This document shows, in pieces, positions 1 through 49,366 of a stretch of 64,000 bases of DNA (its first letter is position 1; every line of letters starts with the position of its first letter). The stretch lies in contig QPGO01000053.1 in assembly GCA_008632985.1 (NCBI GenBank), forward strand, positions 1 through 64,000. The letters run 5' to 3'. The position numbers and the translations under genes were made by a program. The stretch comes from Psammoneis japonica (lineage: Eukaryota). A model generated the notes under the pieces. The model saw only the letters and a program-made list of their open reading frames with translations. It searched no databases and was not told where the DNA came from.

Positions 1-156
1 ATCCTTCTCACCGACAAGGGCAAGGCTCTCATTCGCGAAAATGTGGGTCTTCTGACGCACAGACCGTCTGCCACTCCTTGTCTGAGCACGCGCTTGCCTC
101 CACCCGCGCATCTGTCGAGTCCTCCACCCTGCTCACGCACCTGACCACCGCGCGTC

Positions 157-3100
157 TTGGTGATGGCACTTGGAAAGGTCCGACCCACGGTTCATCCTTC
201 ATTGGCAAGATCAGTTGCGCAAGTACGAGGCACTCATCCCGCCAGTGACCACTTCTCTGAAGGACAGAAGCGCGTCATGCTCGAGAATGCCGTGCACCCT
301 GTCGAGGAACTCCGTGCTGTCAAGAACCAAGCTGATCAGCATCGCACGCAGAGTGGCAGAGCTCACATGGATCAACACTGTGGCTTGCTCCTCTCCGCGG
401 CAGCTCAGTGCGACAGCACGTTTCAACCCAAGACGACACCTCGAGCTCCCCGACGCGCCACATGCGCACATGACGTCTGCTCCGAGGAACCGTCCGATGA
501 TGTGTTCTACGACATTGACAGCGACGTTGACGTCCTTCAGGCCAATGCTGCCTACACCCGCGGTCCCAGCCTCACCGGTGTCCAATGGAGACGTCTCCCT
601 CCCGACCACCAACGGCTCTGGGATTCGTTGCCCGATTCCTCCAAGGCGATCATCCTTGAGCATTCTCGTCCACCTCCCCGCAACCCGCGAGCCAGTGACC
701 ACCATGAGTCTGTTACGGCCAACCTTCATGACCAACGCCTTGGGAGTGACGGTGATGTCAACTTGTCCAACACGACTCCTGCGTGCTCTGGTGACTCCGC
801 TCCACATGTGGACGCCACTTCGGACAATCCCATCCTGGCGCACCTCACCAAGCGCAAGCCACTGCCACCCGGTGATCTGCAACGTCTGTTGTCTCCTAAC
901 CAAGCCCACAATGCCAGTCGACCGGGGCCATCCGCCGCTTCCTCTACCCCGCCAGCTTCTGCAGATGACACAGAACTTAACGGCCGCACTTGCCGCCGCG
1001 TCAACAACCACAATGTCATTTGCTCTGCCTCTGCTCATCGCTCCACACGCACTGGTGCTCTAGTCGATCGTGGGGCCAACGGCGGCATTGCTGGCGACGA
1101 CGTTCACGTCATTGCACGCACCTCTCGCCAAGTCGACGTTCAGGGCATTGACGATCATCAGTTGGTGGACATCCCCATTGTCACCGCTGGTGCCGTTGTT
1201 GAGACCCAGCGTGGTCCCGTCATCGCCATCCTCCATCAGTGCGCATGCACGGGCAAGGGCAAGACCATCCATTCCTGCGGCCAGCTCGAATGGTGCAAAC
1301 AGGATGTCAACGATCGCTCTGTCAAGGTGCCCAACGGCTTGCAACGTGTTGCCACTCCTGATGGCTATGTCATCCCCATTGACATCAAGGCTGGCCTGCC
1401 TTGTGTTGCCATGCGACCTTACACTGATGCCGAATGGGACACCCTGCCCCATGTCATCCTCACCGGTGATGACACATGGGACCCTTCCGTCCTCGATCAC
1501 TCTGTCACTGACGACGACCAGTGGTGCGACGCGATCTCTGANNNNNNNNNNNNNNNNNNNNNNNNNNNNNNNNNNNNNNNNNNNNNNNNNNNNNNNNNNN
1601 NNNNNNNNNNNNNNNNNNNNNNNNNNNNNNNNNNNNNNNNNNNNNNNNNNNNNNNNNNNNNNNNNNNNNNNNNNNNNNNNNNNNNNNNNNNNNNNNNNNN
1701 NNNNNNNNNNNNNNNNNNNNNNNNNNNNNNNNNNNNNNNNNNNNNNNNNNNNNNNNNNNNNNNNNNNNNNNNNNNNNNNNNNNNNNNNNNNNNNNNNNNN
1801 NNNNNNNNNNNNNNNNNNNNNNNNNNNNNNNNNNNNNNNNNNNNNNNNNNNNNNNNNNNNNNNNNNNNNNNNNNNNNNNNNNNNNNNNNNNNNNNNNNNN
1901 NNNNNNNNNNNNNNNNNNNNNNNNNNNNNNNNNNNNNNNNNNNNNNNNNNNNNNNNNNNNNNNNNNNNNNNNNNNNNNNNNNNNNNNNNNNNNNNNNNNN
2001 NNNNNNNNNNNNNNNNNNNNNNNTCACTGACGTCTACGGCACTAAGACGGACAAAGAGTTTGTCAACACACTCGAGGATCAGATCCGTGAACGTGGTGCC
2101 CCATCCAAACTCATTAGCGACCGTGCTCAAGTTGAGATCAGCAACAAAGTGCTCGGGATCCTGCGCGCCCTCTTCATCTCTAGCTGGCAAAGTGAGCCTC
2201 ACCAGCAACACCAAAACTTTGCCGAACGTCGACACCAGACCGTGAAGCGCATGGCGAACACTGTCATGGATCGTTTTGGTTCGCCTGCCCATGCATGGCT
2301 GCTGGCGCTCATGCACGTGTGCTTCATGCTCAACCATGCAGCGTCCCCACGTCTCCACTGGCGCACGCCCCTCGAGACTCTCACTGGCTCCACCCCGGAC
2401 ATCAGCCCGTTGCTTCGCTTTCATTGGTGGGAACCCGTGTGCTTCCACCTCGATGACTCCGATTGGCCGTCCGAATCCCGTGAGTTGCGTGGACGCTTCG
2501 TTGGCATTGCTGAGCACGTCGGCCACCAGATGACCTTCAAGATTCTATCTGACGAGACTCAGAAGATCCTCTGCCGGTCCAACGTCCGCTCCGCTACCCC
2601 CGATCCTGCCGTTCGAAACCTGCATCTTGATCCTCCTGATGGGGAGCCACCTGAACCCATCATCAAATCTCGCCATGACGACAACCCCGTCGACTCTCCT
2701 GATGGGGAGATCAGGACACCCAAGATGCCAGTTTTCGATCCGCAAGACATCATTGGACGTACCTTCCTCATGCAGCCACAAGAGGACGGACAACGCCACA
2801 GAGCTCGCATCGTCAAGGCCGTCGAAGACCACGAATGGAAAGTGAACGGCAATCCCGAGCTCACTAAGTTCGTCTGCTCTGTCAACAATGACGAATGCGA
2901 GGAAGTCCTTGCCTGCAATGACATCATGAATCACATTGAGCAAGAAGACGAAGACACCACTGTTTGGAAATTTCGACGCATCGTGTCGCACGAAGGACCT
3001 CTGAAGCCTCATGACCCAACCTGGAAAGGCTCCAGCTACAATGTCATGCTTGAATGGGAAAGTGGGGAGATCACGTCCGAGCCTCTTGCCATCATCGCCA

Positions 3101-5035
3101 AGGACGACCCCGTCACCTGTGCCATCTATGCACGAGAGAACGGACTCCTCGACACGGATGGCTGGAAGCGGTTCCGCACCATCGCGAGGCGCCAAAAGAA
3201 GCTATTTCGCATGGCCAACCAAGCCAAGCTTCGCTCCCTCCGCACTGCACCTCGCCACAAGTGTGGATGCGAAGTTCCCTGGAACTACAAACACGCCATG
3301 TCACTAGACGAACGCAACGGCAACCGCAAGTGGGGAGACGCAACTAATCTCGAGATGGACCAACTCGACGAATACGAAGTCTTCCATGACTGCGGGCCCT
3401 TCAAGTCTTCCACTCCTCCTGCGGGACACAAGAAGATCCGAGTGCACCTAGTGTGCGACGTGAAACACGACGGTCGCCACAAGGCACGACTCGTAGCCGA
3501 CGGGCACCTCACGGACGTACCTGTCGACAGTGTCTACTCCAGAGTAGTCTCCCTCCGTGGCCTTCGGCTGATGATTTTCCTGGCCGAACTCAACGAGTTG
3601 GAGACATGGGCCACCGACATTGGCAATGCCCACCTTGAAGCCACCACCAAGGAGAAGCTTTACATTGTAGCTGGACCCGAGTTCGGCAAACTCGAAGGGC
3701 ACATCCTTGTCATCCACAAGGCACTGCATGGACTGCGCAGCTCCGGTCTCCGCTGGCACGAGCGCTTCACCGACTGCCTGCGAGCTGAAGGCTTCTTCCC
3801 CTGCCGTGCCGAACCCGACATTTGGATGCGCAGGAACGGCGACCACTATGAACACATTGCCGTTTATGTGGATGACCTCGCCATTGCCATGAAGGACCCT
3901 CAATCTTTCGTCGACACTCTCACGGAAAATCACAAGTTCAAGCTCAAGGGTACGGGACCCATTGAGTTCCATCTGGGTTGCGACTTTTCCCGGGAACCCA
4001 ACGGAACCTTGTGCCTGTCTCCGCGCAAGTACATCGAGCGCATGGTCGACAGCTGCCCGACTGTTTGGGGAGAAACCTGCCACCAACGCCCTGTCACCTC
4101 TAGAGAAGGGTGACCACCCCGAACTGGACACTTCCGAACTGCTGGGACCCGATGGCATTCACAAGTTCCAGTCTCTTGTTGGTTCACTCCAATGGGCAGT
4201 GTCCCTTGGTCGAATTGACATTGCCACGGCCGTCATGTCACTCTCTAGCTTCCGAGCTGCGCCCCGTCAAGGCCACTTGGACCGTGCCAAACGCGTCTGT
4301 GGGTGCCTCTCCAAGATGCGACACGGTGCTCTCCGCGTTCGCACGGAAGAGCCCGACTGTTCGGATCTCCCTGCTCCGGCCTGTGAATGGATGCATTCCG
4401 TGTATGGTGAAGCAGAAGAGATGATCCCGAAGGACGCTCCACCGCCCCTTGGCAAGTTCGTCACCACCACCCACTACGTCGATGCAAACTTGTGCCATTG
4501 CATGCTCACCGGACGCTCTGTCATGGGAATGCTCCACTTCCTCAACAAATTCCCGGCTGATTGGTTCTCTAAGAAACAAGCCACCGTGGAGACTGCGACC
4601 TACGGGTCTGAATTTGTTGCCGCAAGGACTTGTGTTGAGCAGATCATTGACCTGCGCATCACCCTGCGCCACCTTGGCGTCCCGATCCGTAACGTTAGTT
4701 ACATGTTCGGTGACAACAAGTTGGTTGTAGACAGTGCCACCATCCCGCACTCCAAGTTACACAAGCGACACACCGCACTATCGTTCCACCGTGTGCGTGA
4801 GGCAATTGCCTCTGGTTGCCTTGAGTTCCACTTCATCGAAGGCTCCCGCAACCCTGCTGACATTCTCAGCAAGCATTGGGGTTACTCCCAAATCTGGGAC
4901 CTTCTCCGCCCCCTCATGTTCTGGAACTTCATTCCATCCAAAGTCGAATCTGTTTCTGTGGATCCTCAAGCAAACTGGGGAGTGACAGGATTTGAACAGG
5001 ATTCAGGTGCGCGCGAAGTATCGCACGCTGTTTAG
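157..5035 (+). pseudogene. Copia gag-pol polyprotein with a frameshift near 4060 and many Tyr->Cys/His substitutions
   Basis: ORFs 157..4113 and 3962..5035 join into a complete pol. The frame changes at VDSC/RLFGEKP. Confidence 0.9.
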
Positions 5036-5191
5036 TTTACCGTGCACAGTTTTGTGTGCTTTAGTTCCGCGCGTTCACGCGCGATGTAGTTTGCTTTCGA
5101 GCCACAAGGCTCACAAGAATGACAACAGTAGCCCGATCATGCCAACTTACACGTCTTTCGGCTCCCGCAACGGTCTCTGAGCGGAGACTCA
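4983..5191 (+). repeat. Putative 3' LTR (TGA...TCA, ~209 bp)
   Basis: Starts TGACAGG right after the polypurine tract and ends GAGACTCA. CpG density collapses immediately after 5191. The 5' LTR is not in the window, so the end cannot be confirmed. Confidence 0.6.
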
Positions 5192-6517
5192 TCTGCCATT
5201 TAGACAGCAGCAAGGAGTTGTTGTTTGAATTCTTGCCATTTGCCTTCAATTTCTGTCAGTCATGCTCCAGAGCCAGTGCCACAGACAGGGCAATGGCAGG
5301 GGGGGAGAGCAGCTCCACAGACTCAAATTTGGTGGCAAAGCAGTGCACAACAGTGCACAGGTCCTCAGCAAATTCTTCCACTGCCACAGCCCATGACCCG
5401 CCTGATGTTGACAAAGAATTGTCATCTGGGGTCAAGTGGGGGATGATGTCAAATTGGAGTCAACACCAGCAAGGTCAGGTGGATGGCCCAAGTGACTCCA
5501 GTTGCTTGGCCCTGCAGTGTCATTGGCAAGCCATTCACCACAAACAGACAAAGGTTGCAGCCAGCTTGCAGAAAATCCGGAGGTGCACTTGACTCAAATT
5601 GCATGTCTGAGGCAGTCTCATTCATCACAAAACCAAGCATCTCATTGGACACTTCAGCGGCAAAGGGGCATGAGTGGTTGCACGTGCAGCGTCTTTGCAT
5701 TGTTGATTGTGGAACTTTCATTTAGAGACAATGGAGGTAACTTTGTTGGTGTTGAGCTTGACAATTTCCAGAAGCAATGCAAAATGGGCCAGTTGAGAGC
5801 AGCTGCAATGACTGTGACCATGTGTGGCACACGCATCACAAAAATCAAGTCCTTGCAGGATTGAAACAATGCACTCTGGCAGTCCAAGAGACCAGACTGA
5901 TTTTGACCATGGCATGCATTCAGCAAGCCCATGGGATCAGTGGAGGCAGCAAGCTTTGGGTCAATCTGTGTGATGAGAGAGACAAGTTGCAGGTCATGTG
6001 GTGATGGAGCAGAGTTGCCAAGTCCATTGAGTTTGTGCTTGAGGAGGAGAGCTGATCCACATGGACCTGCAGGGACAGCCTTGAGGAGCTTCAGCAACTT
6101 GTTGCACTTGGAGTGTGTGCCAGTGGTGCAGACAGGTTGGTCTTGGCAGCGGATTCTTCAGCTGCCACAAAGCAAACAGTGAACTCATCCACCAGTTTGC
6201 ATGGGTTGCCCTTCCAGGATGGCATCTCAACCACTTTCCCAGCAAGAGTGGGAAGACCAATGGAGGCAAGATGGTTTTAATGGCAAAGCCATCCACAGAG
6301 GCAGCACATGTCTTCTTCCAATCATTGCACAAACAATGATCTGGCAGCATGTCATCCTGGAGCAGATGGCAAACTGCTGTTGGCAAGACATGCTCACCAG
6401 CATTGGATCACAGAAGTCAGACTTGTCACAAGTCAAGGTGTCAGGGTCCCAAATCGGAATTTTGGCCTGAGTGCACCAGGTGTGGATGCCTTTGAGGAAG
6501 ACAGCAAGGGGTTTTGG

Positions 6518-6561
6518 CACTGCAGTGCCTTTCCAATGACACTGCAGTGCCTTTCCAATGA
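6518..6561 (+). repeat. Perfect 22-bp tandem duplication CACTGCAGTGCCTTTCCAATGA x2
   Basis: Seen directly. Confidence 0.9.
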
Positions 6562-8719
6562 CAAAGCTGTCTTCGCCCAGCATGCAAGGACAAAGTGCCC
6601 AAAAACTTGTCACCAGATGGAGTTGACAAATCCAAGGATCTGGTGCAAGGCAGTCAGTGACAGAGCCAATGACTCATGCAATGCATTCTGTGGCTGCAGT
6701 GCCCATGGCATTCTTGGTGGCAGGAGCCAGGTCCACAGATTGGGCAGGCATGTTGGCAGTCCTGGATGGATGCAGCACAGAGAGATGTGCAATGGTCCTG
6801 CAGCTCCTTCTGAACACTGGCAACAGTGCATTGTGTGGCTTTGGAGAACTTTGCAGCAGTTTTGAGTTTTTCAGCCTGAATCTGGAGGGCATCACTCTGC
6901 GCAATGAGCTGAGCTTGAATGCCATTAAATTGGCCCCAAAGTGCAGCAGCCACAGCATGCTTTGCAACAAAATGGGGCCGGGGTGCAAGGGGGTTGGTGC
7001 AGATGACAAATCAGAATTGGACATGGGTGTGTGGAGGACATGACAATGTTTTCACAGTCATCCAAAACACCAGTCACAGCATCCACCACAGTGAGGCGCC
7101 ATTCTGGACAGTCTGTTTGGCACCCGCCTCAGTGGATTCTAGGTGTGCAAGTGTGATCTCCAGCTCATCAGTCTGTTGCTTGACACAGACACCTGGATGC
7201 AGGCCCAAAACTTCTTCAAAGTGGTGCTGACAACATTGCTGACAACACGCACAGCTTTGGATGCAGACAATTCAATGCATTGAATGTGGGTGTCCACAAA
7301 CAATTCTGGGTTGTTTTGTGCAACAGTCATCATCTTGCGCACTCATTCCAGAACAGTGGCTTCCATTGACTCATGCACTCTGACAGTGTGTCTGTCTCCA
7401 GTGCTGCCAGAAACTTCTTGTCACAAGCAGTGATTGCTTCATTGGCTGCATTGCCTGCAAGAAAAATGGCGTTGGCTGTTGCAGCCTCCATCTGGGAGTT
7501 CACTTCCATGCAGAAAGTGTCGAAGTCTTGGGAATGACCAAAATCAGTTGCAGCAGTGCTTTGGGAGAGCCCATGTGTCTCAGAGCACAGGTTGCAGACT
7601 TCTTGGTGCTGGAGTTTGCTGACTTCCTCCAAAGATGCAGCAAATGCCACTTTGCATTCATCTGGCTGTTCAATCACAGAGTCAACGTAGCTGTGACATT
7701 GTGAGAGAAGTTCTGAGTCAGGGATGGGTGGTGAATGAGGTGGTTCCGGTGGTTTGGCCAGCGGCGGCGGCACATCTGGTGGTGTGTGAGGCCAGTCAGG
7801 AGGCAGCTCAGGGGGCAAGCAAGGTGGGAGATGAGGCAAAATTGGCTGCAAAGGAGCAATGGCAGCTTGAGGTGTCAGAAAAGGAGTTGCTCCATTGTCA
7901 GGTGTTGCAACAGCCACCTCAGCCTCTGTGGCATTGTCTGCTGCAGGAGACACAGGAGGAGATTTTGTTGTTGCACACGCCGTTGTGACAACCATGGTTG
8001 TTGCAGGCAACATGCAAGGTGCCACTTTGGGGTTTTCAGTGGCTGGTGTTCCATCGGCCGATGACAGAGAGAAATCATCCTGAAGGGATGAGAGTTTGGC
8101 CCATCATGAGGATGCCATTTTGGAGTGGACAATGTCAGCAAGCACCATGGTTGCAAGAGAAGGAAAAATCCATCATCATTGCACCACGCAAGGGCAGCAG
8201 GTCTTGGAACTTGGTGGTGTGCAACCAACAAGAATGCAGTGCACACAGAAGGAATGCTGCAACACGTGCAAGCAGATGCAAAAACAAAAGGCAATGGTGT
8301 GAAGCAGCAACCAATGTGAGTGCACCGTTGTCATTGACAGAGCAGCAGAGTTCACATTGCAAATGCTCTCTGCTGGTGTTGTTGACAATGGGAAAAGAGG
8401 AGAGTGTTGTGTTGCCATTTGTGACCTTGTGCAAGCATTGCTCACCACCTGACAGAGACCCCCATGTCTGTGCAGATCTGTTCAATTGGATCCCAGCTGT
8501 GTGCTTTTGGCAAAGTTGAAAAGAGCCACCCACAACCTCCATTGCCTTGCTGCATTGTTGTTCTTGGTTGCATGCTCCTTCAACAAGCCAGCACTCAAGA
8601 GCTGCAGCCCAGCCCCCTTGATGAGCCACCATCAATCAGCTTGGCCTGGGTCACCCCAGCCATCCTCACCTCATCCCTCATCTCTGACCCTTCTCTCAGT
8701 CTTCTCTGGCCCATCTCTG

Positions 8720-9162
8720 GATTTTGCCCTTTGTCACATGATTTTGCATTTCTTTTGAAAACAGGGCTCACACATTGCTGCCCCTTGTCACATGGTGTTG
8801 CCCTTCATTTGAAAACAGCTGCCCTTTGTTTGAAAACAGCTTGCAGTGTTGCCCTTTCTTGTTGCCCTTCACATCACACAACGTTGCCCTTTTTGTGAAA
8901 ACAGCTGCCCTTCATCACATGATGTTCAACCTCTTTTAAAAAAGTTGCCCTTCTTTTGAAAACGTGGCCCATCACATCATGGTGTTGCTCTTCTTTTGAA
9001 AACAGGGCCCACATTTTTGCCCCCCCCATCACACGATGTTGCCACTCATCACAGCCCCCTTCTTCACATGACCCTTCTTTTGAAAACAGTGCTCACGATG
9101 TTTCCCTTCATCACATGGTGCCCTTCATCACATGGCATTGCCCTTTCTTGTTGCCCTTCATT
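8720..9162 (+). repeat. Array of shuffled short motifs (TTGCCCTT, TTTGAAAACAG, CATCACATG)
   Basis: Each motif recurs many times within ~440 bp. Confidence 0.75.
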
Positions 9163-9613
9163 GTGCAGTGTGCATGCAGACAAAAGGTCATTTTTGTCAC
9201 GCCCTTTGTGACATTTAAAGGCTGTGACACGTCGCCGTGACACATTGGCTCTTGTTGGTGGCTGTACATTGCACTCCTCCCCATGCATCACGCGTCCACA
9301 CGGCTCTTTACTGACGTGCACTGACACTGCACGGTTTTGGCGGAACAGTGTGGGCACGCACGAAGGAACGCACAGAACTGCACAGAGTTTTGCACGTTCG
9401 ACAGTGATCAACGTTGCTGCAGACAACTCCCACTCAGGGTTTCGAACCCCTGGCCTCCTGCCCAATGGTTGCGATGAACCACTCCGTTGTGAATTCACAA
9501 TGCAGTGTGCATGCAGACAAAAGGTTGTTTTTTGCAACGCCCTTTGTGACATTTAAAGGCTGCAACACGTCGCCGTGACACATTGACTCTTGTCAGCAGC
9601 TGCACATTGCACT
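9163..9613. repeat. Two ~112-bp direct repeats (9163-9274 and 9501-9613), each with imperfect terminal inverted repeats (MITE-like), flanking a ~225-bp spacer
   Basis: Both copies read TGCAGTGTGCATGCAGACAAAAGG...CCCTTTGTGACATTTAAAGGCTG...TG(T/C)ACATTGCACT. Confidence 0.8.
9426..9490 (-). other. tRNA-like fragment (SINE head or tRNA pseudogene)
   Basis: Minus strand has GAGTGGTT (A-box-like) and CAGGGGTTCGAAACCCTG (B-box/T-arm hairpin). No complete acceptor stem. Confidence 0.45.
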
Positions 9614-12344
9614 TTCCTGAGGGAGCAACATTTCAAGCAAAAAAAAATGGCGAACGTCAAAGGACCTGCAAATTGCTGGTGGCCTGGCTTCAGCTTCACT
9701 CTCAGCAGCTCAAAGAGCATTCCGTTGAGACAGAGAACAGGGGAAGACTGAAGCAGATCTCCAAATGGAGTCATGTCCTGTGTCTGTTGACTGAAGTTGA
9801 GAAAATCTCTTTGCCCAATTGGGGACAATTGACAAAAGTCATGCTCCATTGGCCCAAACCACTTGCTGCAAACTGCAGCAGCACTTGGCTCCTTCTGATC
9901 CACTGAAGCAGTCTTGGTCACTTCAATGATTGCGTGCGCAACATCCTGTTTTGCCAATTGACCACATCTTCAACAAAACTTCTGCTCACGTTGTCACTTG
10001 TGGCACACTTGAGATGATGTCCAATGACAAGCCATTTGTGCTCACCCTCAGAAAATGCAAGTTTCTTCAACACAGTCACATGCTCAATTTCAATTCATTG
10101 TGCCAGGTCACTCACATGATCACCAGCAAATGGAGACACCAAAAAATTTGGGGATTGCAGAAGACAGCACACACCATCAATTGAGAGACTTCATCTTGGT
10201 GTCATGTGGGAGCGAGGCTTCATTGAGAACAAGTTGCAACAACAGGTTCCAACGGCTCTCCTCTCACAGAGAATGCATCTGCCTCATCCACAGAGATCCC
10301 AAAGCATGGAACACTGCAAAGATTTGAAGCAGGATGACAGCACATGCATGTGGGTTGGAGCAGCAGCACCAAAAAACCCTTGGCCACCGTGTGCCAAGAG
10401 AGTTTTTTGTGTCCAGAAAACTGACACATCACCACAGTTTGAGAAGCCAAATTGAGCTCATTGTTTTTGATCAAGGCAACCACAGCCGGGCAATCTCAAG
10501 CTCAGGCATTGTCGCCACACCACTCTTTGACTGTCCCCTCATTTCCTTGGCCCCTTTGGCAACAATGTGAGGGATGCACCAAGCTCTTCTCAATGTTTTC
10601 TGCAGACCATCTTCTTTTTTGGCCCCAGTTGTCATTGTGCGCTGTGTTGACCAGTCAAATGTTTGGTTCTGCTGTCCTGACAATGATCTCTTCCTGGGGT
10701 GGATTTTCAAGGAATGGCTTTCTCCACAAATGGAACATCAAAAGCATGCCACACCATGTTGGTGAAGAAAGCATGGACCAAGACAGGATTTCGGATGTCA
10801 ATTGTCAAGTTTGAGCATTGCTTTGGAGATGACATTTCACTGGGTCATGATTCCTCTGCATTGACTTGCACCATTGATTCATCACAATGGTTGTTGGAGT
10901 CCAAAGGAGCTTTCTGCTCTTCCTCAGAGGACTCACCACCTGCAAAAGGACTGCCAGCTGTCATGTTGGCAATTGCAACATTGAACTTGATTTTGTCTTT
11001 GTCCTTCTTCTTCTGCTCTTCATCCTTCTTCTTCTGCTCTCTGAAAGCCGCCTCCCAAGTTTGACCATTGCTGTTTTTCCAATCTTTTTTGCAAAACAGT
11101 TGTTGCAATGCATGTCATTGTCACAATGCTTGTGATGCCAAGAGTTTCTGCAACATGGCATTTGCGCTTGTGCACAGTGGATCAGCACTTGTTGAAAACC
11201 AGCTTGAGAGCATTCTTTTCTTTGTCCAGCACACATTGTCAAGGTGAAGTGTTGTTTCACTCCACGTCCCTTGTTCAATTCTTTCTTGCCATTGAGAAAG
11301 TGTGTCTGACATTCTTTGCTTTCAGCCAAATCATTCTCATTTGGCTTGAGGGTTGTGAAAGCCAGAGCACAGTGCTTTTCTTCTGTGCAATGCTGCAGGC
11401 AGTCATTGTCTGCAACAATGATCTCAGAGTGAATGAGAGAACCCAAGGAAGTCAGAAACATTGGATGCTGCAGCTGGCCATCAGAGGGAGGCTGATGGCT
11501 GGCTGGCATTGCGTTCACCAGCCAAGGGGCATGGTGGATCAGAAGTGGGTTGGAAAGGGACACAAAGAGGATCACAAAGGGATTGCAAAGGGATCACAAG
11601 GGATCATTCTTGCATTGAATTTTGCAGATGTGAAGGGGCGCGAAACATTCTTGTGAGGGGGGATGACATCTTCTCTTGGCAACTTCAGCAATGCTGGGGG
11701 GTCCTTTGGCAAAACTTTCAATGAAGTGCATGACAGGCACTGAGGGCCTGGACATCTTCCATGATGAGATTCGCAGCTGCGCTCCGGAGCAGGACTGCCA
11801 GCGTGCTTTGCACACCACAGCTTTGAGGTGAACAAGAAGAAGGCCACCGAGGATGACAAGAAGGCTGCCCCTGACCAACTGCCCCTGCAAGGAAACATTG
11901 GAGAGCCATTCAAAGGTGCCATGAAGCATGAGCAGCACATGTGAAGTCGGAGAAGGAAGGTCATGAAGGTGTGATTGGAGGCATTTCAATTTGCAATGTA
12001 ACACACACAGCAGGATCTGCCAGTTGGATTTCTTGTCACCTGTTGATTTCCATTTGCTGCAAATTGAATGCTCTCTCTAGAGAGTGGAGCAGGGCTGCTG
12101 CACTCTAAAAAACGATGACAGCGGCGGAAACTGGAAGCCATGTTTTTTACTGTTCGGATTTTGAATTTGTCGTTTCAGATTTTGACATTGGTCAAAATCT
12201 GTTTTTCCGCCCCATGTGGGCTATGCCCACCAACATGCTGAAATCACGCGTTGCGCGGATTAATTACCGTATCCAAAATGGCGTTGTTGTTGCACTGCCA
12301 ACAGCCAAGGCTAGCCATCCACCTCGATCGCTGCTATTGTAATT

Positions 12345-14454
12345 ATGACTGAGCGGAGGTGCTTGACTCTTTCAGTGTTTCTATCTGTCATTTTATTTAC
12401 AAGCAGTGGTTTTACAAGAGCTGCACATCATGAAGCAGCAGCATGCCGACGGAGATCGGTCGCATGTTTTGCGGCACAGCAGACTCACCAGCAAAACTCA
12501 AAGAAAGACTACGACTTGATTGTCATTGGCGCGGGTGCATCCGGAATGTTTGCAGCTGGTACCGCTAGTATGTTGGGTTCGAAAACATTGGTGTTGGAAG
12601 AATCTTTTGTGCTGGGTGGCGACTGTACAAACTTTGCCTGTGTGCCGTCCAAGGCCGTGCGCTCGATTGCAAACGTGGCCGTGAAATCAGCAGGCATCGA
12701 GGACTGTACAAAAGCAGGAACAACAAATTGGTTGGACACGGCACAACAACATGCATACGACACAGTCCAAGCTGTGAGTAAGCGTGAAGATCCCAAAGAT
12801 GTTGCAGAAAGAAATCCCAACCTGACGGTACAGTTTGTCGAATCGTGTCGGTTCGTCTCCTCTCATGAAATTGAGTTTGTGCCTGTAAAGAAACTCAACG
12901 AGTCATTCCAAAGAGCAAACTACAACAGTCGTCAGCAGCAAGAAATTCCCAATTGCAACAGGTGCATCACCCACAGTCCCTTCCCACCTGGCAGAACAGG
13001 CGGAGGCCGCAGGCATTCCTGTCTTCACATGTCGTTCCATTCTCAATCCTTGCTTCGCTGGAGACGGAAATGCTGCCTCAATGTGGCAGTTGCCACAACA
13101 ACAATCCAGCATGAAAAGAAACTTGATCGTTGCAGGTGGCGGACCGACTGCGTGTGAACTCGGACAGGCCGTGGCAAGATTGGCCAAGGCCGCAAACGCC
13201 ACGGTTGACATTGCAATTGTGGCACCAACGACATTGCCACGACAAGACGTGGCGTTACGACACGCGGCAATGAAGCTTCTAGTCCATGACGGTGTTTGAT
13301 TGATTCTTGGTCAGCGTGTGACAGAAGTCATGCCCAACAACAGCTCTGACAGCACCTGTTCGGCAACTGTTGAACGCGGCGAGAATGATGAACAACAGAA
13401 GAAGATGGACAATGTGATTGGCTTGGTTTTGTGCATGGGTCGAAGTCCTAAATCATCGCTGCTAGACTGAATCTGGATGCTGCAGATATCAAATGGACAG
13501 ATCGAGACGGTGTCGTGGTGGACAAGTATACCTTGGCATCTCCTTCTGCCAAGCACGTGTATGCGTGTGGTGACTGTTGTTCCGCCACTCAAAACAGTCG
13601 CACGGCAGCTCATGCCGGATGGACTGGGTTTCATGCCGCGCGTAATACTGTTCTGCCATCGTGGCTCTTGTTTCCGAGGTTTCTTGGGAGACGAAAGGCT
13701 TCTGTTCACCAACATGTGCCGAGCGTGACGTTTACACATCCAGAACTTGCGTCCGTTGGATTGTCTCTTGCCGATTGTGTAAGAAAGTACGGAGTTGACG
13801 GATTCGATTGTTTGAATATAGCAGAAAAAGGCAATATGGATAGGGCCGACATGGAGCGATTGGAACGCTTTACCAGTCCGAGCTTTATCGAGCTTCGTGC
13901 AACCAATACGGGAAGGTGCTGGGAATGACGTGTTGTAGTCCAGTTGGATCGGAATTGGCAAATGAAGTGGGACTAGTGTTGGAACATGGCATGACAGTGA
14001 CTGACATTGCACGAGCAATTCATTCGTACCCCTCCCACGGATACATGCTTCATCGAATGGCACTCGCGTTGGCAACCAAGGACACTGTGTGCTTGGCGGA
14101 AGCTGCTGGTGGTCCTTTGGGTAACGTGATCGGGAAAGTTGCAAAAAGGATTCTTCAAACACGTGATACTATCAAGAATAGTTTAGTACCACAGAAACGA
14201 CGGCGAGCCAAGCGGCAACGTGATTGGGAAGCAGCCGGCGTCGACAAGGCCATAATGCTGTTGAGAAACACTGGTGAGGGCGAGAAGAGTGTGTTGGATG
14301 CTTCCAACATAACCATATGGAATTGGTTTCTTTTCTGCAGTTGAAGAAAAATAGTACCATTGAAAGCGAGATATCCCATCAATCAGCAATGACATGGACG
14401 TCCAAAGACGAGAAACTAGAGTTTAGAAATTGGATGGAAAGAAAGCCAATCTGA
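12345..14454 (+). pseudogene. Class I pyridine nucleotide-disulfide oxidoreductase (mercuric reductase/dihydrolipoamide dehydrogenase-like), disrupted
   Basis: Motifs IGAGASG, GGDCTNFACVPSK, GGGPTACELG, VYACGDC, VTFTHPELASVG, IHSYPSHG. Several frameshifts and an in-frame TGA at 13297-13299. Confidence 0.8.
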
Positions 14455-20069: not shown

Positions 20070-23000
20070 TTACAAACATGTACCATCAACGCAGGAACCT
20101 GATTGGCAGAGGCTATTTGTTGTGCATGGTTCTCCGGACAGTTGCTGAGACTGGCAAAAGGAAAGCGAGCTCGACGACCAAGGAATGCTTGTCGAGGAAA
20201 CGAAAACGTCACCGCTTGGACAGCAAACGAGCTCGGCAGCAGCCGAAAACTTTTCAAATGCACAAGTATTCAGAAGGCAGTCGGAATCATCGTCACAAGA
20301 ACCGAAATTGGCGACAGCTGAACCGACGCAAGCACCGTTAACGCAATGACCACTCTGGCACAAGTTGTTGCGGGGACAGGTTCGTTCACGGGCTGTTGAC
20401 GTTGGCAGAAAGTAAGTGACGAACTGGACCAAGGTATATCCGATGAAGATATGAACTGCTCCCCGTTTGGACAGCACACAAGTTCCGCCGCCTCGGAGAA
20501 ATTCCCGTATCCGCATTGGTTGCTAGAACAGTCGCTGTCGTCGTCGCACTTTCCTAAATCTCCAACAATGCTTGCTACACAAGCGCCATTGACGCATTGG
20601 CCACTTTGGCATAGGTTGTTTCTAGGACACGGCTCATTCACCGGCTGCTGGCGTTGACAGAAGTTAAGCGAGGAACTGGACCATGGTATGCTCGATGCAA
20701 ATATAGACTGCTCCCCGTTTGGACAACACACACGTTCTGCCGCCTCAGAGAAATTTCCGAAACCGCATTGGTTACTAGAACAGTCGCTGTCGTCGTCACA
20801 CTTTCCTAAATCTCCAACTTTTCCCGCCACGCATGCACCGTTAACACATTGGCCACTCTGGCACAAGCTGTTGCGGGGACATGGTTCATTCGCCGGCTGC
20901 TGACGTTGGCAGAAATTTAGCGAGGAACTGGACCAGGGTATATCCGATGCAGAAATGAACTGCTCCCCGTTTGGGCAGCACAGAAGTTCTGCCGCCTCGG
21001 AAAAATTCCCGTAACCGCATTGGGCGCTAGAACAGTCGCTGTCGTCGTCGCACTTGCCCAAATCTCCAACAATGCTTGCTACACAAGCACCGTTGACGCA
21101 TTGGCCACTTTGGCACAAGTTGTTGCGGGGACATGGTTCATTCACTGGCTGCTGACGTTGGCAGAAAGTGAGCGAAGAGCTGGACCATGGTATGCTCGAT
21201 GCAAATATAGACTGCTCCCCGTCTGGACAGCACACAAGCTCTGCCGCCTCGGAGAAATTTCCGTAACCGCATTGACTAGTAGCACAGTCCGAATCATCAT
21301 CGCATGGCTCTAATTCTGAAGCAACGGACTCCGCACATCTGCCGTTCACGCATTGACCACTCTGGCACAGGCTGTTTCTAGGACACGGCTCATTCACCGG
21401 CTGCTGGCGTTGACAGAAGTTCAGAGAGGAACTGGACCAAGGTATATCCGATGCCGATAAGAATTGCTCTCCGTTTGGACAGCACACAAGCTCCGCCGCC
21501 TCGGAGAAATTCCCATAACCGCATTGACTAGTAGAACAGTCCGAATCATCATCGCATGGTTCTAATTCTGAAGCCACGGACTCCGCACATCGGCCATTGA
21601 CGCATTGGCCACTTTGGCACAAGTTGTTGCGGGGACATGGTTCATTCACTGGCTGCTGACGTTGGCAGAAAGTGAGCGAAGAGCTGGACCATGGTATGCT
21701 CGATGCAAATATAGACTGCTCCCCGTCTGGACAGCACACAAGCTCTGCCGCTTCGGAGAAATTTCCGTAACCGCATTGACTAGTAGCACAGTCCGAATCA
21801 TCATCGCATGGCTCTAATTCTGAAGCAACGGACTCCGCACATCTGCCATTGACGCATTGACCACTCTGGCACAAGTTGTTTCTAGGACACGGCTCATTCA
21901 CCGGTTGTTGGCGCTGGCAGAAGTTAAGCGAAGAACTGGACCATGGTATGTCTGACGCGGATATCAACTGTTCCCCATTTGGACAACACACAAGTTCTGC
22001 CACCTCGGAGAAATTTCCGTATCCGCATTGATTACTTGAACAGTCAGTGTCGTCGTCGCACTTTCCTAAATCTGCAACTATTCCCGCCACGCATGCACCG
22101 TTAACACATTGACCACTCTGGCACAAGTTGTTGCGAGGACATGGTTCATTCGCCGGCTGCTGACGCTGGCAGAAAGTAAGCGAAGAACTGGACCAAGGTA
22201 TATCCGATGAAGATATGAACTGCTCCCCGTTTGGACAACACACACGCTCTGCCGCCTCGGAGAAGTTTCCGAAACCGCATTGGTTACTAGAACAGTCCGA
22301 ATCATCATCACATGGCCCCAGTTCAGACGCAATAGACTCCGCACATCTGCCGTTGACGCATTGACCACTTTCGCACAAGTTGTTTCTTGGACACGGCTCA
22401 TTCACCGGCTGCTGACGTTGGCAGAAGTTAAGCGAGGAACTGGACCAAGGTATATCCGATGCAGATATGAACTGCTCCCCGTTTGGACAGCACACAAGCT
22501 CTGCCGCCTCAGAGAAATTTCCAAAACCGCATTGACTACTAGAACAGTCCGAATCATCATCGCAGTTTCCTAAGTCTCCCACAATGCTTGCTACACAAGC
22601 ACCGTTGACGCATTGGCCACTTTGGCACAAGTTGTTTCTAGGACACGGCTCGCCCGCAGGAACCTGTCGCTGACAGAAATTCAACGAGGAAGAGGACCAT
22701 GGTATGTCAGTTGAAGATACAAATTGCTCCCCAGTTGGACAGCACGCAAGCTCCGCCGTTTGAGAGAACGTATTGAAAGCGCAGACGTTGCTCTGGCAGT
22801 CGCTGTCATCATCGCATGCACCAAGATTCGAAACGATGGTAGCCGTGCAAGCACCGTTTACACAGTGACTGCTCTGGCACAAATTGTTGTGGACGCAGGC
22901 TTGTCCTTCTGTTTGTTGAAGTTGGCAGAAGAATAAGGAAGCTGAAGACCATGGAATGCTTGTCGACGATATTCTTATTTCCCCGCTTGGGCAGCAAACA

Positions 23001-24952
23001 AGACTGGCCTGGGGTGAAAATGTTTCAACAGCGCACACCGACGACTGGCAATCCGAATCACTATCGCAAATCCCCAAATTAGGAACCAGAGTAGGGACGC
23101 AGTTACCATTTACGCATACGCCGCCGCCACAGTCCGCGTTCGTTTCGCAAGCATTTCCAGGAGGGACTGTAGGTCGAGGTGATCTAGATTCTTGTGTAAT
23201 CGGCCGTCTCGTTGGCACGCGAGTGGTAGGAGCCGGCGATATCGTGGGTTCTGGAGGGGCGACGACGAACAAAACGTTCTCTTGGAATTCAAAGTCGCCG
23301 CCCTCTGCTAGAATGATGTTACGAGTAGTTCCAAAGTACAAGCGATAAAAGCCTTGATTGATCCCGTCTCCATAGTCATCTTCAATCATAAATTCACACC
23401 CAGCTCCATTATCAACCTCGAACGTTTCAGAAACAAGCAACGACGGGATCGAGTACGTCTTTGTTGGTACAGAGACAATCTCGGTATTGGCGCACTGTAG
23501 ACTCCAACCTATTTCTGCTGGAAACTGATCTAGTTGAATCTCCACCATTATGACACTTGTCCCCTGTGAACTTGTTGGTTCCATTGACAATGTCGGAGCC
23601 GGTGAAACTGTAGGCGCCTCTGTGAAAGCAAAATCCGCTTGGAAGGAAACGACGCGGGCATCTGCAAAGTCTCCAGTACCATCCACAAGAATAGCGTCAA
23701 CGTTGTTAATGTCATTTCCATTATAAACTTGGAATGAGCCACCCGCGATTCCGTCACCTCCAGTGTCTGTAATTGTAAACTGACACTCCTTTCCCACGGG
23801 CACTTGGACGTCCTCGGTCACGAGCCTACTATTGAGGCCGGCATACGTTGTAGCGGGGACGCTTTCAATTGTGGTATCGGAATCGCATTGTATGCTCCAT
23901 CCCGTTTCCTGAGGGTTATCATCCAAACGAAGCACGACTGTAACATCAACTTCATCATTGGCATTATCACCTCCAGACGATCCGCCACCCGTAACGAGTA
24001 CTACCACAACCACAACAATGGCTGCCACGAGAAGTACAGCCACCAAACCCAACATGTAAACAAGTCGTTTGTTGCGAGCAGGAGGCTCATCTACAAGAGT
24101 CGTTGCTTCTGCAATGGGTACATCTCTTGTAGCAGTTGCCGTTGGTACGGTCGTTTCATCTTCTGAAGGCTCTACAAGAAAAGCACTTACAAGGCGCGTG
24201 TCCGAAGAGGAAGGAGGGCCTTTTTCAGATAATTATCTTCTTCTTCTTCTTCTTCTTCTTCGAGGTCTAGCGGTGGTCGCGAAAAACATTCTCATCGGAA
24301 ACACGTGATCCCCCTCCGATTCCCGGCACGGCTACGCGCCCGGAGACATGTCGTCGCTTTGGGATTTCAACGCCCCGTGGTTTCCAGCTTCTTCGTCCAC
24401 CGCCACGACGACCCCGTCTCTCTGTGGATCAGTGCCAGTGCTAGCACTAGCAGCCTTGGCTTTCTTCTTTTTCATGCCTTGCTTCTTGAGTTTGGCATCC
24501 AGTAGCTCTTGATCCATGTTGCTGCTCGCGATCGACTCGTTTGAAAGCGCCCACGGCACTTCACGCGGTTCATTCTCGAGAGCGACCGAAGCCACGGTTG
24601 TCGCTGCCGCAGCAACTGCAACGGATCTTCGTTCTTTTTCCTTCAGTTTTGCATCCTCCATTTCCTTATTGGAGAGTCCCTTGGAATCAGGGAACGTCGG
24701 CATTTGACTCGGTTGGAAGGAATTGTCGTACGATTCGGTGGTTGCTGTTTTCGTTTCACCGGGACGCGTGTCACCAGTCGTGCTGGATTTCTTGCGTGCC
24801 GGTGGTTTTAACGAAGACCTCGCCCCGACTTCTTCGCGTCTGAGACGGCTGCTACTGCTATCGTCCATTGCGTCTTGGCTGGCACGACTGGTGATGCGCG
24901 GATCCGATGCGTTTCTCGTCGGAAAACCACCTCCATTATTTGTCTCACTCAT
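20070..24952 (-). CDS. Large type II membrane protein with ~12 tandem 84-aa, 10-Cys repeats
   Basis: Cytoplasmic N-terminus (ORF 24952..24332), TM LGLVAVLLVAAIVVVVVVLV, two E[TI]GWS.QC domains, P/T/S linker, then 252-bp repeats. Apparent indels at ~24335-24230 and ~20380. Confidence 0.8.
20075..23140 (-). repeat. 252-bp coding tandem repeat, ~12 units
   Basis: IPWSS occurs 12 times. Near-identical DNA segments recur at multiples of 252 bp. Confidence 0.92.
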
Positions 24953-33799: not shown

Positions 33800-34282
33800 T
33801 CTTGTTCCTTTGAACTGTAAAATTGGTAGGCTTTTCGGACGGTTGATAGCCTTTCACCTTTCCCAACCAGTTATATCTACGTTCAACAACTAATCAGACG
33901 GCGGCGGCGGAGGGCCTTGATCATCGTTGGATTCTTCACCTGCTGTTGGCTCTTTCGACAAAAATGGCGGGCAGGACAGTCGATTGAGTCGGATCGATGG
34001 AACGCGTTGAATCGAATACATGGTGTGTTTCTTTCGAAGCTTCACAAAAAAGTAATATGGGCCCTACAAGTTATTCTCTCTAGAGCGAGCCATTGGACGT
34101 TTACCTGTTGAAGTATGGTTGGGTAGTTCAACTGCCATCGAAAGATCCAGTCGAACGGCTACAACTGCTACGTGGTAAATACGAAGAATTTCTAGAGCGA
34201 TTCCTTCTGTCATTTTATGGGGTGGTTTCTACAATGCGTTTCCCGAAAAAGAACGAGGAAAGCGCGTTGATCTTCGCCACAC

Positions 34283-38554: not shown

Positions 38555-39029
38555 TACGCTAAGCTTTGTTGATTGCAAAATGATCCTTCGTCACCGACCA
38601 AAACAATCTCGACCAGAAACAATTCCGTTAGTGCTCCAGATGTAGATGGCGTTGAGCACCATGACAATTTTCGAAAACACCGCTTCTTGCATGATACGCC
38701 AGACAAAGCAGCTGCCCTTGAATCATCGGTCGCTACCTTACGTTCATTTCGTTTCTGCCTGCTATTACATGACTTGCATCCAGGATCATGTCGGAAAACC
38801 ACAAAGATCATGTCACAAAAATCTCTAGTTGGATGAAACGGACCTGAAGAACGAGTGCTCTGTTGAGTTAGTATGAAAGCGGGGACCCTTAATGATTCAA
38901 TGCCGCATGCCGGTACGAGTGGAAGTATCTTGGTGAAATCTATGAAATCTATCCCCCAAACCAGAGAACGAGAGGTTGGCTACACTCTTCTCTATCGAAC
39001 TCGGTGGGCTTCTGTGTGCTCTTAACCCT

Positions 39030-39251: not shown

Positions 39252-39259
39252 TTAAGGTT

Positions 39260-46442: not shown

Positions 46443-46995
46443 GACGTGGAAGTTTTTGGGTTATGGGGTGAAACAGATTCTTGCGGGCTGCTACTCTCTA
46501 CCGGTGCCGGTGCTACTCTGCTCTCTACCAGGCTCTAGCAGCTAGAGTGGTGGCTGCTCTCTAGAGCTAGCTAGAGAGAGTAGAAATCCGGATAAATGTG
46601 GTGAAGTGTCAAAAATCTTCTGCATCCGCATCGCGCTTCGATGACCACATGATGTGTGATGTGTGTGACATCTTCACACAACATGTCACATCACTTCTTG
46701 CTTGTCAGCTTCTGGCTGTGCACTGTTGTTCCATGTTCATTTTTTGTGTGTTTCATTTTCCTTCACATGCCTGGTGTCTCCAGAGAAGCCTGCTTGACTC
46801 AAATCCTTCAGACTCACACAGAAGATGCTCTGTCTGCACTGCAGCAGTGTGCTCAGCAGCAGTTGTTGGGGCAAACGGAGGCCTCTGCTGACAATGAATG
46901 CCGCGGTGTGTGGCGGTCTTGTGGGGGGGATCTCAATCACTGTCTTTCAATGACAGTGAGCCATCAAGGGCCAAGAAATGTAGAAAATTCATGGA
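46443..46995 (+). pseudogene. Mutated duplicate of the promoter and 5' coding end of the gene at 52857
   Basis: Colinear with 52568-~52992 (GGGTTATGGGGTGA, CCTGGTGTCTCCAGAG, TCAAATCCTTCAGACT, ATCTCAATCACTGTCTTTC). The start ATG is lost. Confidence 0.88.
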
Positions 46996-47444
46996 TGAGG
47001 AGCCACCAGCTCTCAACGACACACTTGGCAGCCTGGCTGATTGACAGAAAGCAAGTGGCGCACTCCAGCCCCAGGTGGGGCTCCATGCGACATGGGCTTG
47101 CAGAACTCTGCGTGCAAGCTCTGCAGCTCAAGAGCTTGGTCAATGGACACATTTTTGTCTTCAACATCCAAACAAACAACCAAGCTTGTGGCGTGGTTGT
47201 GCCTCCCCTCAGCCCGCCTGCTCTGCTCCGCTCTTGACAGACAATTTTAAGAGCGGCACTGTGAAAACAAATGTCAAAAGTTGTTGAATGGACAGCCCAA
47301 CAATCGCACTGCAAAATGGCACAAAAATGCAACCAAAGTCATGCAGAAATGCATGTGCATGACATGCGGAGCATGACAAGACAACTTCAATGTGTCGCAG
47401 TCCAGCACTGCGAGGTCCCACCCAGAGCTGGAGCATGGCTGCAG

Positions 47445-47925
47445 TGACAAACTTGCCAAATGGCTTGGACATGTGTCAGAAAGATCTCCTTCACATGATC
47501 TTCACCACAAATGGCATGCATCCAGTCATGATGCGCAGGCTTGAGAATGTCCAAGTGGTCAGGCTCTTTGTTGCACACATGTGTGCAAGGCACCATGTTG
47601 CATCTTGGACAAGTGTCTGCAGACATGTTTGGCACAATCAAAGATTGCAGCTTGGCTTGGCTGACCATGTGGAACAGCTTCTTCTGTCACCTTGCAGCTG
47701 CGCAAAAATGTTTCCAGCCTTTGGCATTGAGAAAGCCATTCTTGTGTGCACAGATGATGGCACAGGTGACAGGGTTGCCCTTGGCAACAACTGTTGGAGG
47801 CTTGGCAGCAAGGATCTGCCTGCTCTCACACTCAAACAAGACATTGCAGCTTGAGCCTTTCCACACAGGCTCTCATGAGATTCCAGCCCTTTGTGTGACA
47901 ACATGCAGCAGAACTTTCACTGAAC
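47445..47925 (-). mobile_element. Decayed, internally deleted copia fragment of the same family as 1-5191
   Basis: Minus strand reads WKGSSCNVLFE...NPVTCAIICAHKNGFLNAKGWKHF...QKKLFHMVSQAKLQSL, then DCAKHVCRHLSKMQHGAL, KEPDH, DWMHAICGE, FGKFVT. Confidence 0.88.
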
Positions 47926-47962
47926 CCCACCATGATGACTCATCAAATTTGTGGATTGGGGG

Positions 47963-48632
47963 GATCAGGACATCCAAGAAGCCATTTTTTGATCCTGCAG
48001 ACATGTTGCCTGATGCACCTTTCTCGTGAAGCCTCAAGAAGGCATGCCATGGAGCTTGCATTGTCAAAGTTGGTGAGAACCATGACAGCTTGTCATTGAA
48101 CATGTCTGGGACAGGGGCTCGTGGAGGCTTTGAGAGGCACTTCTTGGGCTGAATTTGACAATGTCCACAGGACGCTCATGACCATGGTGGGGCAATGGCT
48201 GTGGAGCCAGCGGTGCTGTCAGGAGCTTCCAGCATGTTTGTCAACAAAGCTGTCCAGCCCACCGACACCGCCAAAGCAACAACAAAGCAACAGATGGGGA
48301 GATCAGGACATCCAAGAAGCCATTTTTTGATCCTGCGGACATGTTGCCTGATGCACCTTCCTCATGAAGCCTCAAGAAGGCATGCCATGGAGCTTGCATT
48401 GTCAAAGCTGGTGAGGACCATGACAGCTTGTCATTGAACATGTCTGGGACAGGGGCTCGTGGAGGCTTTGAGAGCACTTCTTGGGCTGAGTTTGACAATG
48501 TCCACAGAGGACGCTCATGAACATGGTGGGGCAATGGCTTTGGAGCCAGCGGCACTGTCAGGAGCTTCCAGCATGTTTGTCAACAAAGCTGCCACAGCCC
48601 ACCAACACTGCCAAAGCAACAACAAAGCAACA
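47963..48632 (+). repeat. ~338-bp tandem duplication whose first ~140 bp is a plus-strand copia fragment
   Basis: GATGGGGAGATCAGGACATCCAAGAAGCC at ~48293 matches copia 2701 GATGGGGAGATCAGGACACCCAAGATGCC. Confidence 0.88.
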
Positions 48633-49366
48633 ACGTTGCTGTGCCAACCAGGCAAAAGCTCGGCCAAAGAAGAAGGTGGCAGCTCACCCCATGTGTGGCC
48701 ACAAGCCCCCCCTTGCCCCCCCCCCTTTGGGTTGACAGGCTGTTGTGGTGAAAGGGAAGGAGAAATTCATTCTTCACCAGGTTGAGGCAATGTGGCCTTT
48801 GTTGCCTTGGGTTTTGGTCGGCTGCAGGGGGGGCTCCAACCTCGGAGCACTGCCAGGCTTGGACCCAACACACCATTGAGAAGAGAGCTGAAAGCACCGG
48901 TGGCTGTTGCTTTTTCTCTTCTAGTTTTCTCTTCTAGAAAAGAATGAACATCAACAATCTACCCCTGCGAGCCAGCGAGTGAATTTTGAAAGGGGCAGGC
49001 AGTGCGAGTGGCATGGCCCAGGTCCGCAGAAAAAAGGGCGCTCGAAAACATGACGGTTGGAATGCGGACCTATTCCCACGCAGACCCCGCGGAGTGTCCA
49101 TGCCGCGCCGGAAAAAATGAAACGCGGGTTGTCGTTCGTGCCAAGTGCCAAGTTGCTCACGTGCTCACAAAGCGAAAGCGTCGCTGATGTCCACAATCCT
49201 TGTCATCTGTGCCGGTAAGCTGTGCGTACACGGCCCTTCATTTGTTGTGATCGCAGTGCAAAAACTGCCCTTGAGAGCGCCCTAGTAGCTGGGAATGCTC
49301 GACAGGCCGTAGCAGGGTAGCAGGCCATACAACGAAGCCATTTGCACCTTCTTCTTTTCCTCAGAA

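Follow-up and report, generated by a model that had tools for sequence, protein, structure and literature searches.

A TpA-directed A:T>G:C hypermutation footprint in a copia-type retrotransposon and in gene-free tracts of a probable diatom

The first 64,000 nucleotides of contig QPGO01000053.1 from Psammoneis japonica (assembly GCA_008632985.1; this whole stretch is referred to as the window) open with a Ty1/copia-type long terminal repeat (LTR) retrotransposon, in whose polyprotein cysteine or histidine repeatedly stands where copia proteins have tyrosine. Which process would strike this one residue, and does it stop at the element? The original prediction, made from the letters of the sequence, saw in TAY>TGY and TAY>CAY the two strand versions of a single change, A>G within the dinucleotide TpA. 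The context and direction of the changes, their occurrence on both strands, the mass balance among dinucleotides, the sharp limits of the affected domains and TpA losses that differ from copy to copy are all observed here, and it is probable that they stem from a process that turns TpA into TpG or CpA (A:T>G:C, on either strand) in chromosomal DNA, at a very high rate and only within silenced or mobile DNA.

The retrotransposon and its parts are placed as follows.
1..5259 (end at about 5259), plus strand: copy of a Ty1/copia-type LTR retrotransposon (RVT_2 match, tblastn collinearity, contig depth)
157..4113, plus strand: 1318-codon open frame (part of gag, protease, integrase, reverse transcriptase), spanning a run of N at 1542-2023
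3418..4053, plus strand: reverse transcriptase domain RVT_2 (residues 465-676 of the protein translated from 2026)
3962..5035, plus strand: second open frame (end of the reverse transcriptase, RNase H), entered through a frame change near 4060

The pieces of the window copy that cover reverse transcriptase (RT) and RNase H were aligned with 120 homologues, and columns with Tyr in at least 70% of sequences were taken as conserved Tyr columns. At the 25 columns so defined the window copy has His seven times, Cys three times, Phe twice, Trp once and Tyr 12 times, i.e., Tyr has been replaced by His or Cys at 10 of 25 Tyr columns, as against 30 changed positions among 497 other conserved columns (Fisher p = 3.2e-6). 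Among the homologues, Cys or His at conserved Tyr columns stays at or below 8% in 118 of the 120. The N-terminal motifs were checked in a separate alignment of eight sequences that includes the full-length member P0177. All 13 motifs that the original prediction had quoted as bearing Cys or His in place of Tyr can be read against Tyr, either in this alignment or in P0177, the facing forms being HQYA, EWYK, GLPY, ERRYQ, KIIYRS, NDxYEE..YN, KYKYG, GYKKIRVHLV(F/Y)DVK, GNAYL, KALYGL, CSYLYRM, DANLYH and LRYLG. The F>C replacement in KCGC, which is among the quoted residues, does not count as a TpA change. Compared by codon position, T>C at the first position was found at 8 of 31 Tyr columns and at 1 of 92 Phe, Ser, Cys or Trp columns (p = 6e-5), in an alignment whose poorly aligned N-terminal piece inflates differences.

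The nucleotide composition of the element tells of the same loss. Between 157 and 5035 TpA occurs 51 times, whereas the background frequency predicts 184 occurrences; the observed-to-expected ratio (o/e) of TA is 0.25, against 0.61 in the genic background, and those of CG, TG and CA are 0.90, 1.49 and 1.26. The shortage of TA extends to each of the three codon phases (0.28, 0.31 and 0.22), and the coding pieces hold no ATA codon, 19 codons for Tyr, 36 for Cys and 73 for His. With CpG at 0.90 and TpA at 0.25, deamination of CpG is no explanation for the copia element, as had been argued from the start.

The depletion continues beyond the element, in two gene-free tracts that we call A and B.
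5261..11998, no strand assigned: tract A, single-copy gene-free DNA, with 7 TpA in 6343 bp where 265 are expected, the insert left out
9190..9584 (395 bp), no strand assigned: younger high-copy repeat insert in tract A (depth, contig breaks, composition)
46594..48921, no strand assigned: tract B, gene-free, with 2 TpA in 2328 bp where 97 are expected
47555..47944, minus strand: remnant of a copia-type polyprotein in tract B (tblastn)

Counts for tract A exclude the insert at 9190-9584, and the expectation is the background TpA frequency. The o/e values of TA, CpG, TG and CA are 0.02, 0.15, 1.70 and 1.97 in tract A and 0.01, 0.24, 1.82 and 1.84 in tract B, and the TpA frequencies themselves are 0.0011 and 0.0009. 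The longest run free of TpA measures 2445 bp in tract A and 1674 bp in tract B, and another has 1249 bp. In 500-bp segments from 5501 to 12000, TA o/e lies at 0.00-0.11 with TG and CA at 1.5-2.2, and the same is seen from 47001 to 49000. The edges of the TpA-poor DNA are sharp (5201/11999 and 46593/48922) and lie some 350-450 bp short of the start codons of the neighbouring genes, as read from open reading frames (ORFs). Throughout 5100-12100 and 46400-49400 the stop codons TAA and TAG are almost absent and every one of the six frames stays open over hundreds of codons, yielding 39 and 12 ORFs of at least 90 aa, so that ORF length is no evidence for a gene there. None of the 39 six-frame ORFs of at least 90 aa in tract A matched a Pfam family above cut-off (three chance-level matches, E 0.006-0.017), the 257-aa ORF at 7333-8103 (minus strand) has no relative among 1.84 billion representatives, and no tblastn match to 40 copia homologues was found in the tract. 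The contigs of a public sequencing run that cover tract A are unique, with a depth of 33-35 and no other letters. The remnant at 47555-47944 in tract B is matched by 39 of the 40 query proteins (tblastn, 33-50% identity) and by P0177, and shows weak DNA similarity to positions 2701-3230. The targets recognisable as foreign or mobile are accordingly the copia element, the 395-bp high-copy insert and tract B with its copia remnant.

The insert resembles the copia element in composition (TpA o/e 0.18, CpG o/e 0.87); depth reaches 28,000-70,000 in bins 8824-9623, and contigs break at 9190 and at 9584. It is flanked by a 113-bp direct repeat of 88% identity (9164-9275 and 9501-9613), and could represent either a solo LTR whose end was duplicated or a small element with terminal repeats. 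In the genic and otherwise normal region just past tract A there is a further TpA-free run of 335 bp (12921-13256; TA o/e 0.17 in 13001-13500), which may have arisen by chance or else mark an intron or a small remnant of hypermutated DNA. A short dispersed repeat of 75% identity has one copy at the edge of tract B (46728-46991) and another adjoining a gene (52739-52987).

Is the copia element typical of its family? Its RVT_2 domain (E = 3e-27, Pfam) lies downstream of the integrase in a single polyprotein, the order of Ty1/copia, and residues 213-1850 of P0177, a polyprotein of 1857 aa, are collinear with it in frames 3>2>1>2 (tblastn). As this match begins at residue 213, the window start must cut the element inside gag. 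Databases hold 909 homologues of its protein, at identities of up to 66% and carrying PF07727, the named relative being from the diatom Fistulifera solaris (59% identity); metagenome contigs held only one related locus, a weak one (L001, 30% identity). The copy is degenerate: its frame shifts three times (near 191, near 241 and near 4060), and the 482 N at 1542-2023, in the integrase region, take the place of about 142 residues of a full-length homologue and stand for an assembly gap or for masked sequence. Within the window, no repeat of 5036-5259 was found that would make an LTR pair, the 5' end of the element lying outside. In the public run, summed contig depth over the element is 50,000-300,000, against about 35-60 in unique DNA, from which the family must number on the order of thousands of copies. 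This depth drops at about 5233-5259, the place at which the sequence of other copies takes a different course.

Comparing k-mer contigs of the public run (X1) with the window gave 428 variable places in the family: A>G at 97, T>C at 98, C>T at 77, G>A at 76 and transversions at 78. Forty of them, chosen by support, were listed, 37 transitions and 3 transversions, with the following states.
15 places: TpA in the window, TG (9) or CA (6) in other copies
6 places: TG or CA in the window, TA in other copies
9 places: TG or CA in the window, CG in other copies
2 places: CG in the window, TG in other copies
5 places: other transitions
3 places: transversions

Window-TpA positions hold 15 of the 37 listed transitions, against the share of 94 in 3236 positions expected, a 14-fold excess (p = 5e-14). 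At three codons with Cys or His in the window, TAC makes up much of the family depth (38% at 2896, TGC in the window; 81% at 3256 and 46% at 4670, both CAC), and the family at large is therefore not fixed for Cys or His at these sites. Conversely, four Tyr codons retained by the window copy read Cys in other copies (3536, 58%; 3848, 99%; 4404, 55%; 4602, 95%). Such opposite states imply that different copies bear different subsets of TpA losses and that the ancestral state of the family is Tyr. The footprint also recurs outside the family: among the 120 homologues, which come from other public data sets, P0052 has Cys or His at 15 of 20 conserved Tyr positions and P0073 at 9 of 23, and both also carry I>V, I>M, V>A and T>A changes. 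At the first six Tyr columns, P0052 and the window copy have five states in common. Its presence in 2 of 120 homologues from other data sets suggests that the process is not limited to the copia family of the window.

What became of the missing TpA can be read from the mass balance. The summed frequency of the pyrimidine-purine dinucleotides (TA+CG+TG+CA) is 0.2445 in the background, 0.250 in the copia element, 0.239 in tract A and 0.245 in tract B, and its constancy indicates that TA and CG were turned into TG and CA through transitions. The o/e of AA, AT and TT in the tracts (1.10-1.15, 0.88-0.89 and 1.19-1.28) may be set beside a background of 1.12, 0.97 and 1.12; over all affected regions AA lies at 1.02-1.15 against 1.12, i.e., A/T contexts other than TpA were spared. 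Both strand versions are present, as had been claimed, with Y>H at seven and Y>C at three of the 25 conserved Tyr columns and TG at nine and CA at six of the family places. Strand-coordinated clusters of TG versus CA, the mark of processive single-strand editing, were not found (runs-test z from +1.0 to +2.5). Since the two strands are about equally hit, no clustering by strand is seen and single-copy DNA is the worst affected, the hits appear to have fallen on chromosomal DNA over time, which bears out the original prediction of a chromosomal process rather than RNA editing.

The CpG decay of methylated transposons offers a partial likeness, as tracts A and B combine a CpG o/e of 0.15-0.24 with a gain of TG and CA. 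This pattern of CpG loss is absent from the copia element, and CpG decay cannot remove TpA. Given that the copia element lost its TpA while CpG stayed intact (0.90), the TpA process is separable from CpG decay, and it is the faster of the two here; low TpA with intact CpG in both the copia element and the insert gives the order, TpA first and fast, CpG later.

Among known mutators, repeat-induced point mutation (RIP) of ascomycete fungi changes C>T at CpA, enriches TpA, needs duplicated sequence and creates stop codons. Like our case, it is a hypermutation by transitions at one dinucleotide, which ruins DNA that is repeated or mobile and leaves its mark on the composition, but the direction is the opposite one, as already predicted: A:T>G:C changes destroy TpA here (o/e 0.01-0.25) and raise CpA to 1.26-1.97, tract A is single-copy now, and no stop codon can be created. 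Vertebrate APOBEC3 enzymes deaminate C>U in the minus strand alone, which shows up as plus-strand G>A in retroelement cDNA; deaminase-type hypermutation recorded in integrated retroelement copies is common to both, whereas the changes in the window are A:T>G:C on both strands instead of strand-asymmetric G>A, and they extend to DNA that is no retroelement. ADAR, an animal enzyme family, acts on RNA and converts A to inosine, read as G, with a preference for 5' U. Hyper-editing by ADAR would share the A>I change and the 5' U; however, changes fixed by way of a retroelement would be one-stranded, and here both strands are affected, sense-strand T>C (Y>H 7) being no rarer than A>G (Y>C 3), as are intergenic domains that do not look transcribed.

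A much nearer likeness exists in the chlorarachniophyte (rhizarian) alga Bigelowiella natans, where TpA hypermutation was first reported and of which, judged by its footprint, the case in the window would be another instance of the same kind of process. In mutation-accumulation lines of this alga, two integrated viral regions gathered 231 mutations, of which 230 were A>G or T>C, all on TpA; the targets are integrated giant-virus and virophage DNA, the de novo rate is about 1000-fold above that of the rest of the genome and is on in some lines only, the genome contains TpA-depleted clusters enriched in CpA+TpG, coding sequences low in TpA (mean frequency 0.0018) show an enrichment of reverse transcriptase and DDE domains, and an ADAT2 homologue is the candidate named, according to the preprint (Mettrop et al., bioRxiv 10.64898/2026.01.13.699255). 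The two cases agree in A>G/T>C changes at TpA, in both strand versions, in their regional extent, in mobile DNA among the targets and in TpA loss with a gain of CpA+TpG; at the sequence level the likeness comprises the context, both strands, the spared contexts and the TG/CA-rich segments, and a target recognised as mobile in all regions but tract A. They differ in host, which here is probably a diatom (a stramenopile), and in targets, which are viral insertions there and here chiefly a copia family of some thousands of copies, together with gene-free tracts in single copy. Saturation over multi-kb domains in the window contrasts with the 3.3% TpA kept by the hypermutable giant-virus region of B. 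natans, TpA loss coincides here with a CpG loss that the preprint does not report, and the B. natans rate was measured de novo, whereas the window case is known from what the sequence has recorded. For diatoms, the claim of novelty holds, as no report of TpA hypermutation was found in the literature searched, supplements being outside its scope; as a kind of process, it had already been described in the 2026 preprint. Passages from a paper on diatom retrotransposons mention only cytosine methylation (PMC2806351), and those from a study of the Phaeodactylum mutation rate give a GC>AT bias and no such hotspot (PMC6604790).

How might such a process work? In the younger amplified repeats (the copia copy and the 395-bp insert) some 40-60% of TpA has been lost with CpG intact. 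The loss in the older gene-free tracts amounts to about 97-98% for TpA and, at a slower pace, to 75-85% for CpG, the latter presumably by ordinary 5-methylcytosine decay. As the premutagenic step, adenine at 5'-TA in the DNA may be deaminated to hypoxanthine, for which a TadA/ADAT-like enzyme or some other deaminase would be responsible. Targeting would follow a chromatin domain, the tracts ending some 350-450 bp before the neighbouring start codons, and the process may serve genome defence; of the transposon-directed defence mutator originally proposed, a transition process confined to transposon or silenced DNA is borne out, and defence is its possible role. Elements would be disabled by missense changes (Tyr>Cys/His, Ile>Met/Val/Thr), their frames staying open. 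Under the genetic code, TpA>TpG/CpA never creates a stop codon and removes TAG and half of TAA, which accounts for a frame of 1318 codons in a crippled element and for a tract A that is open in six frames. We tentatively put forward, as a possibility and not as the expected outcome, that diatoms, and perhaps much of the stramenopile-alveolate-rhizarian (SAR) group with Bigelowiella, possess a chromatin-directed adenine deaminase of double-stranded DNA acting at 5'-TA as a defence, which would erase TpA faster than methylated CpG decays and cripple transposons by missense with their frames left open.

The mechanisms that remain are either adenine deamination at 5'-TA or a mutagenic modification of thymine. 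In the latter, a TET/JBP-like oxygenase would make 5-hydroxymethyluracil or 5-formyluracil at silenced TpA, mispairing with G would give T>C on either strand, and the footprint would be identical (TpA>CpA, and TpA>TpG from the other strand). In dinoflagellate DNA, hydroxymethyluracil sits by preference at sites followed by A or C, and 5-formyluracil promotes T>C mutation; on the other hand, TpC is not depleted here (TC o/e 0.95-1.17), the window offers nothing that bears on the enzyme or the base, and we know of no TET/JBP-like enzyme and of neither base in diatoms, for which reasons we regard this route as unlikely. Editing in the course of retrotransposition, by an ADAR/ADAT-like enzyme on the element RNA or by a deaminase on the cDNA before integration, would suit a main object that is a retroelement with thousands of copies, and states common to 95-99% of copies look as if inherited by copying; the 5' U preference of ADAR also fits (as quoted in the Discussion of bioRxiv 10.64898/2026.01.13.699255). 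Yet the two strand versions are about equally frequent (Y>H 7 and Y>C 3; TG 9 and CA 6), the most depleted DNA is tract A, single-copy and devoid of retroelement similarity, and the depletion fills entire intergenic domains with sharp edges and not the bodies of elements, all of which makes such editing improbable. Patch synthesis by a Y-family polymerase drawn to silenced DNA, an option that the original prediction had proposed alongside a deaminase, fares worse. The Pol eta signature, A>G at WA, does include TA, but AA is untouched (o/e 1.02, 1.10 and 1.15 against a background of 1.12), AG is not correspondingly raised in the copia element (0.85), and the removal of 97-98% of TpA with other contexts spared is far more specific than a WA signature, so that we consider this explanation very improbable.

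Could the letters themselves be wrong, modified bases of heterochromatin having been miscalled where the true DNA reads TA? The library type is not on record. Accurate reads do not miscall modified bases, and a k-mer contig of 3958 bp (depth 33) covers 5233-9190 with no differences, which would be unexpected from noisy long reads; the remainder of tract A is covered by further contigs with no other letters and 1-2 gaps. One and the same site has TA, TG or CA in different family copies, the Tyr>Cys/His footprint is found in two unrelated database proteins as well, and miscalling would not conserve the summed pyrimidine-purine frequency yet spare the promoter-proximal 350-450 bp. A basecalling artefact, which had been named as a possible undoing of the whole idea, thus has very little probability. 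Still less credible is that no special mutator was at work, the tracts being intrinsically poor in TA and CG through foreign origin or selection and the Tyr changes being ordinary decay. TpA is mildly under-represented everywhere (background 0.61), but random decay would recreate TpA, and it could hardly be reconciled with 7 TpA in place of 265, runs of 2.4 kb without any, depletion in all codon phases, and Tyr changed to Cys or His at 10 of 25 columns against 6% change at other columns.

Several points nevertheless weigh against the TpA-directed chromosomal process that we prefer. The context counts for the family are partial, coming from 40 of 428 places picked by support, and where one state has a share of 95-99% (3848 and 4602) it looks inherited and not independent, which means that some changes are older than the amplification of the family or that mutated copies went on multiplying. 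In the alignment with the poorly aligned, difference-inflating N-terminal piece, second-position A>G was seen at 3 of 31 Tyr columns and 7 of 193 elsewhere, no significant excess (p = 0.15). Tract A lacks a recognisable domain or relative, so mobile DNA is shown for the other targets only. All four runs (X1-X4) represent one sample, with X2-X4 contributing small shares and repeats only, and the run compared may be the assembly's own data, so agreement between them means consistency only; an artefact is excluded only on condition that the reads are of an accurate type, short or HiFi, as the exact 3958-bp contig suggests. The deaminase step, finally, is purely what we infer.

The rest of the window contains long, intron-free ORFs, and one host protein is 35% identical to a protein of the diatom Seminavis robusta. 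These ORFs, and the fact that the Seminavis and Fistulifera proteins are the only relatives bearing a species name, make a diatom host probable. A search with a DOMON protein yielded no close relative with a name, and one with a PP2C met only broad clusters of eukaryotic proteins. On the minus strand, a 1320-codon ORF at 20270-24232 consists of about ten tandem Cys-rich units of some 252 bp (84 aa) with 77-82% DNA identity, and adjacent paralogous ORFs at 32774-33853 and 34283-35500 (74% identity over 804 bp) form a tandem gene duplicate. A local excess of TpA, opposite to the tracts, occurs at 39001-39500 (50 TpA, o/e 1.45) and probably represents simple sequence rich in TA.

Targeted hypermutation as genome defence has been known in the form of C>T systems (RIP, APOBEC). 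A TpA-specific system of the A:T>G:C type was first reported in 2026, from one rhizarian alga, with no more than a candidate for its enzyme. For annotation there is a warning in the present case, given that hypermutated elements keep long open frames and pass as intact genes, and that TpA-free DNA is open in six frames; the dating of transposon insertions and the inference of methylation from dinucleotides would likewise be biased by the TpA process, as TpA loss outruns CpG loss in silenced DNA. A second, independent host becomes available for the enzyme search, possibly leading to a natural DNA adenine deaminase useful for base editing. That a probable diatom bears the same footprint in saturated form would mean that this system occurs widely in one of the major groups of phytoplankton.

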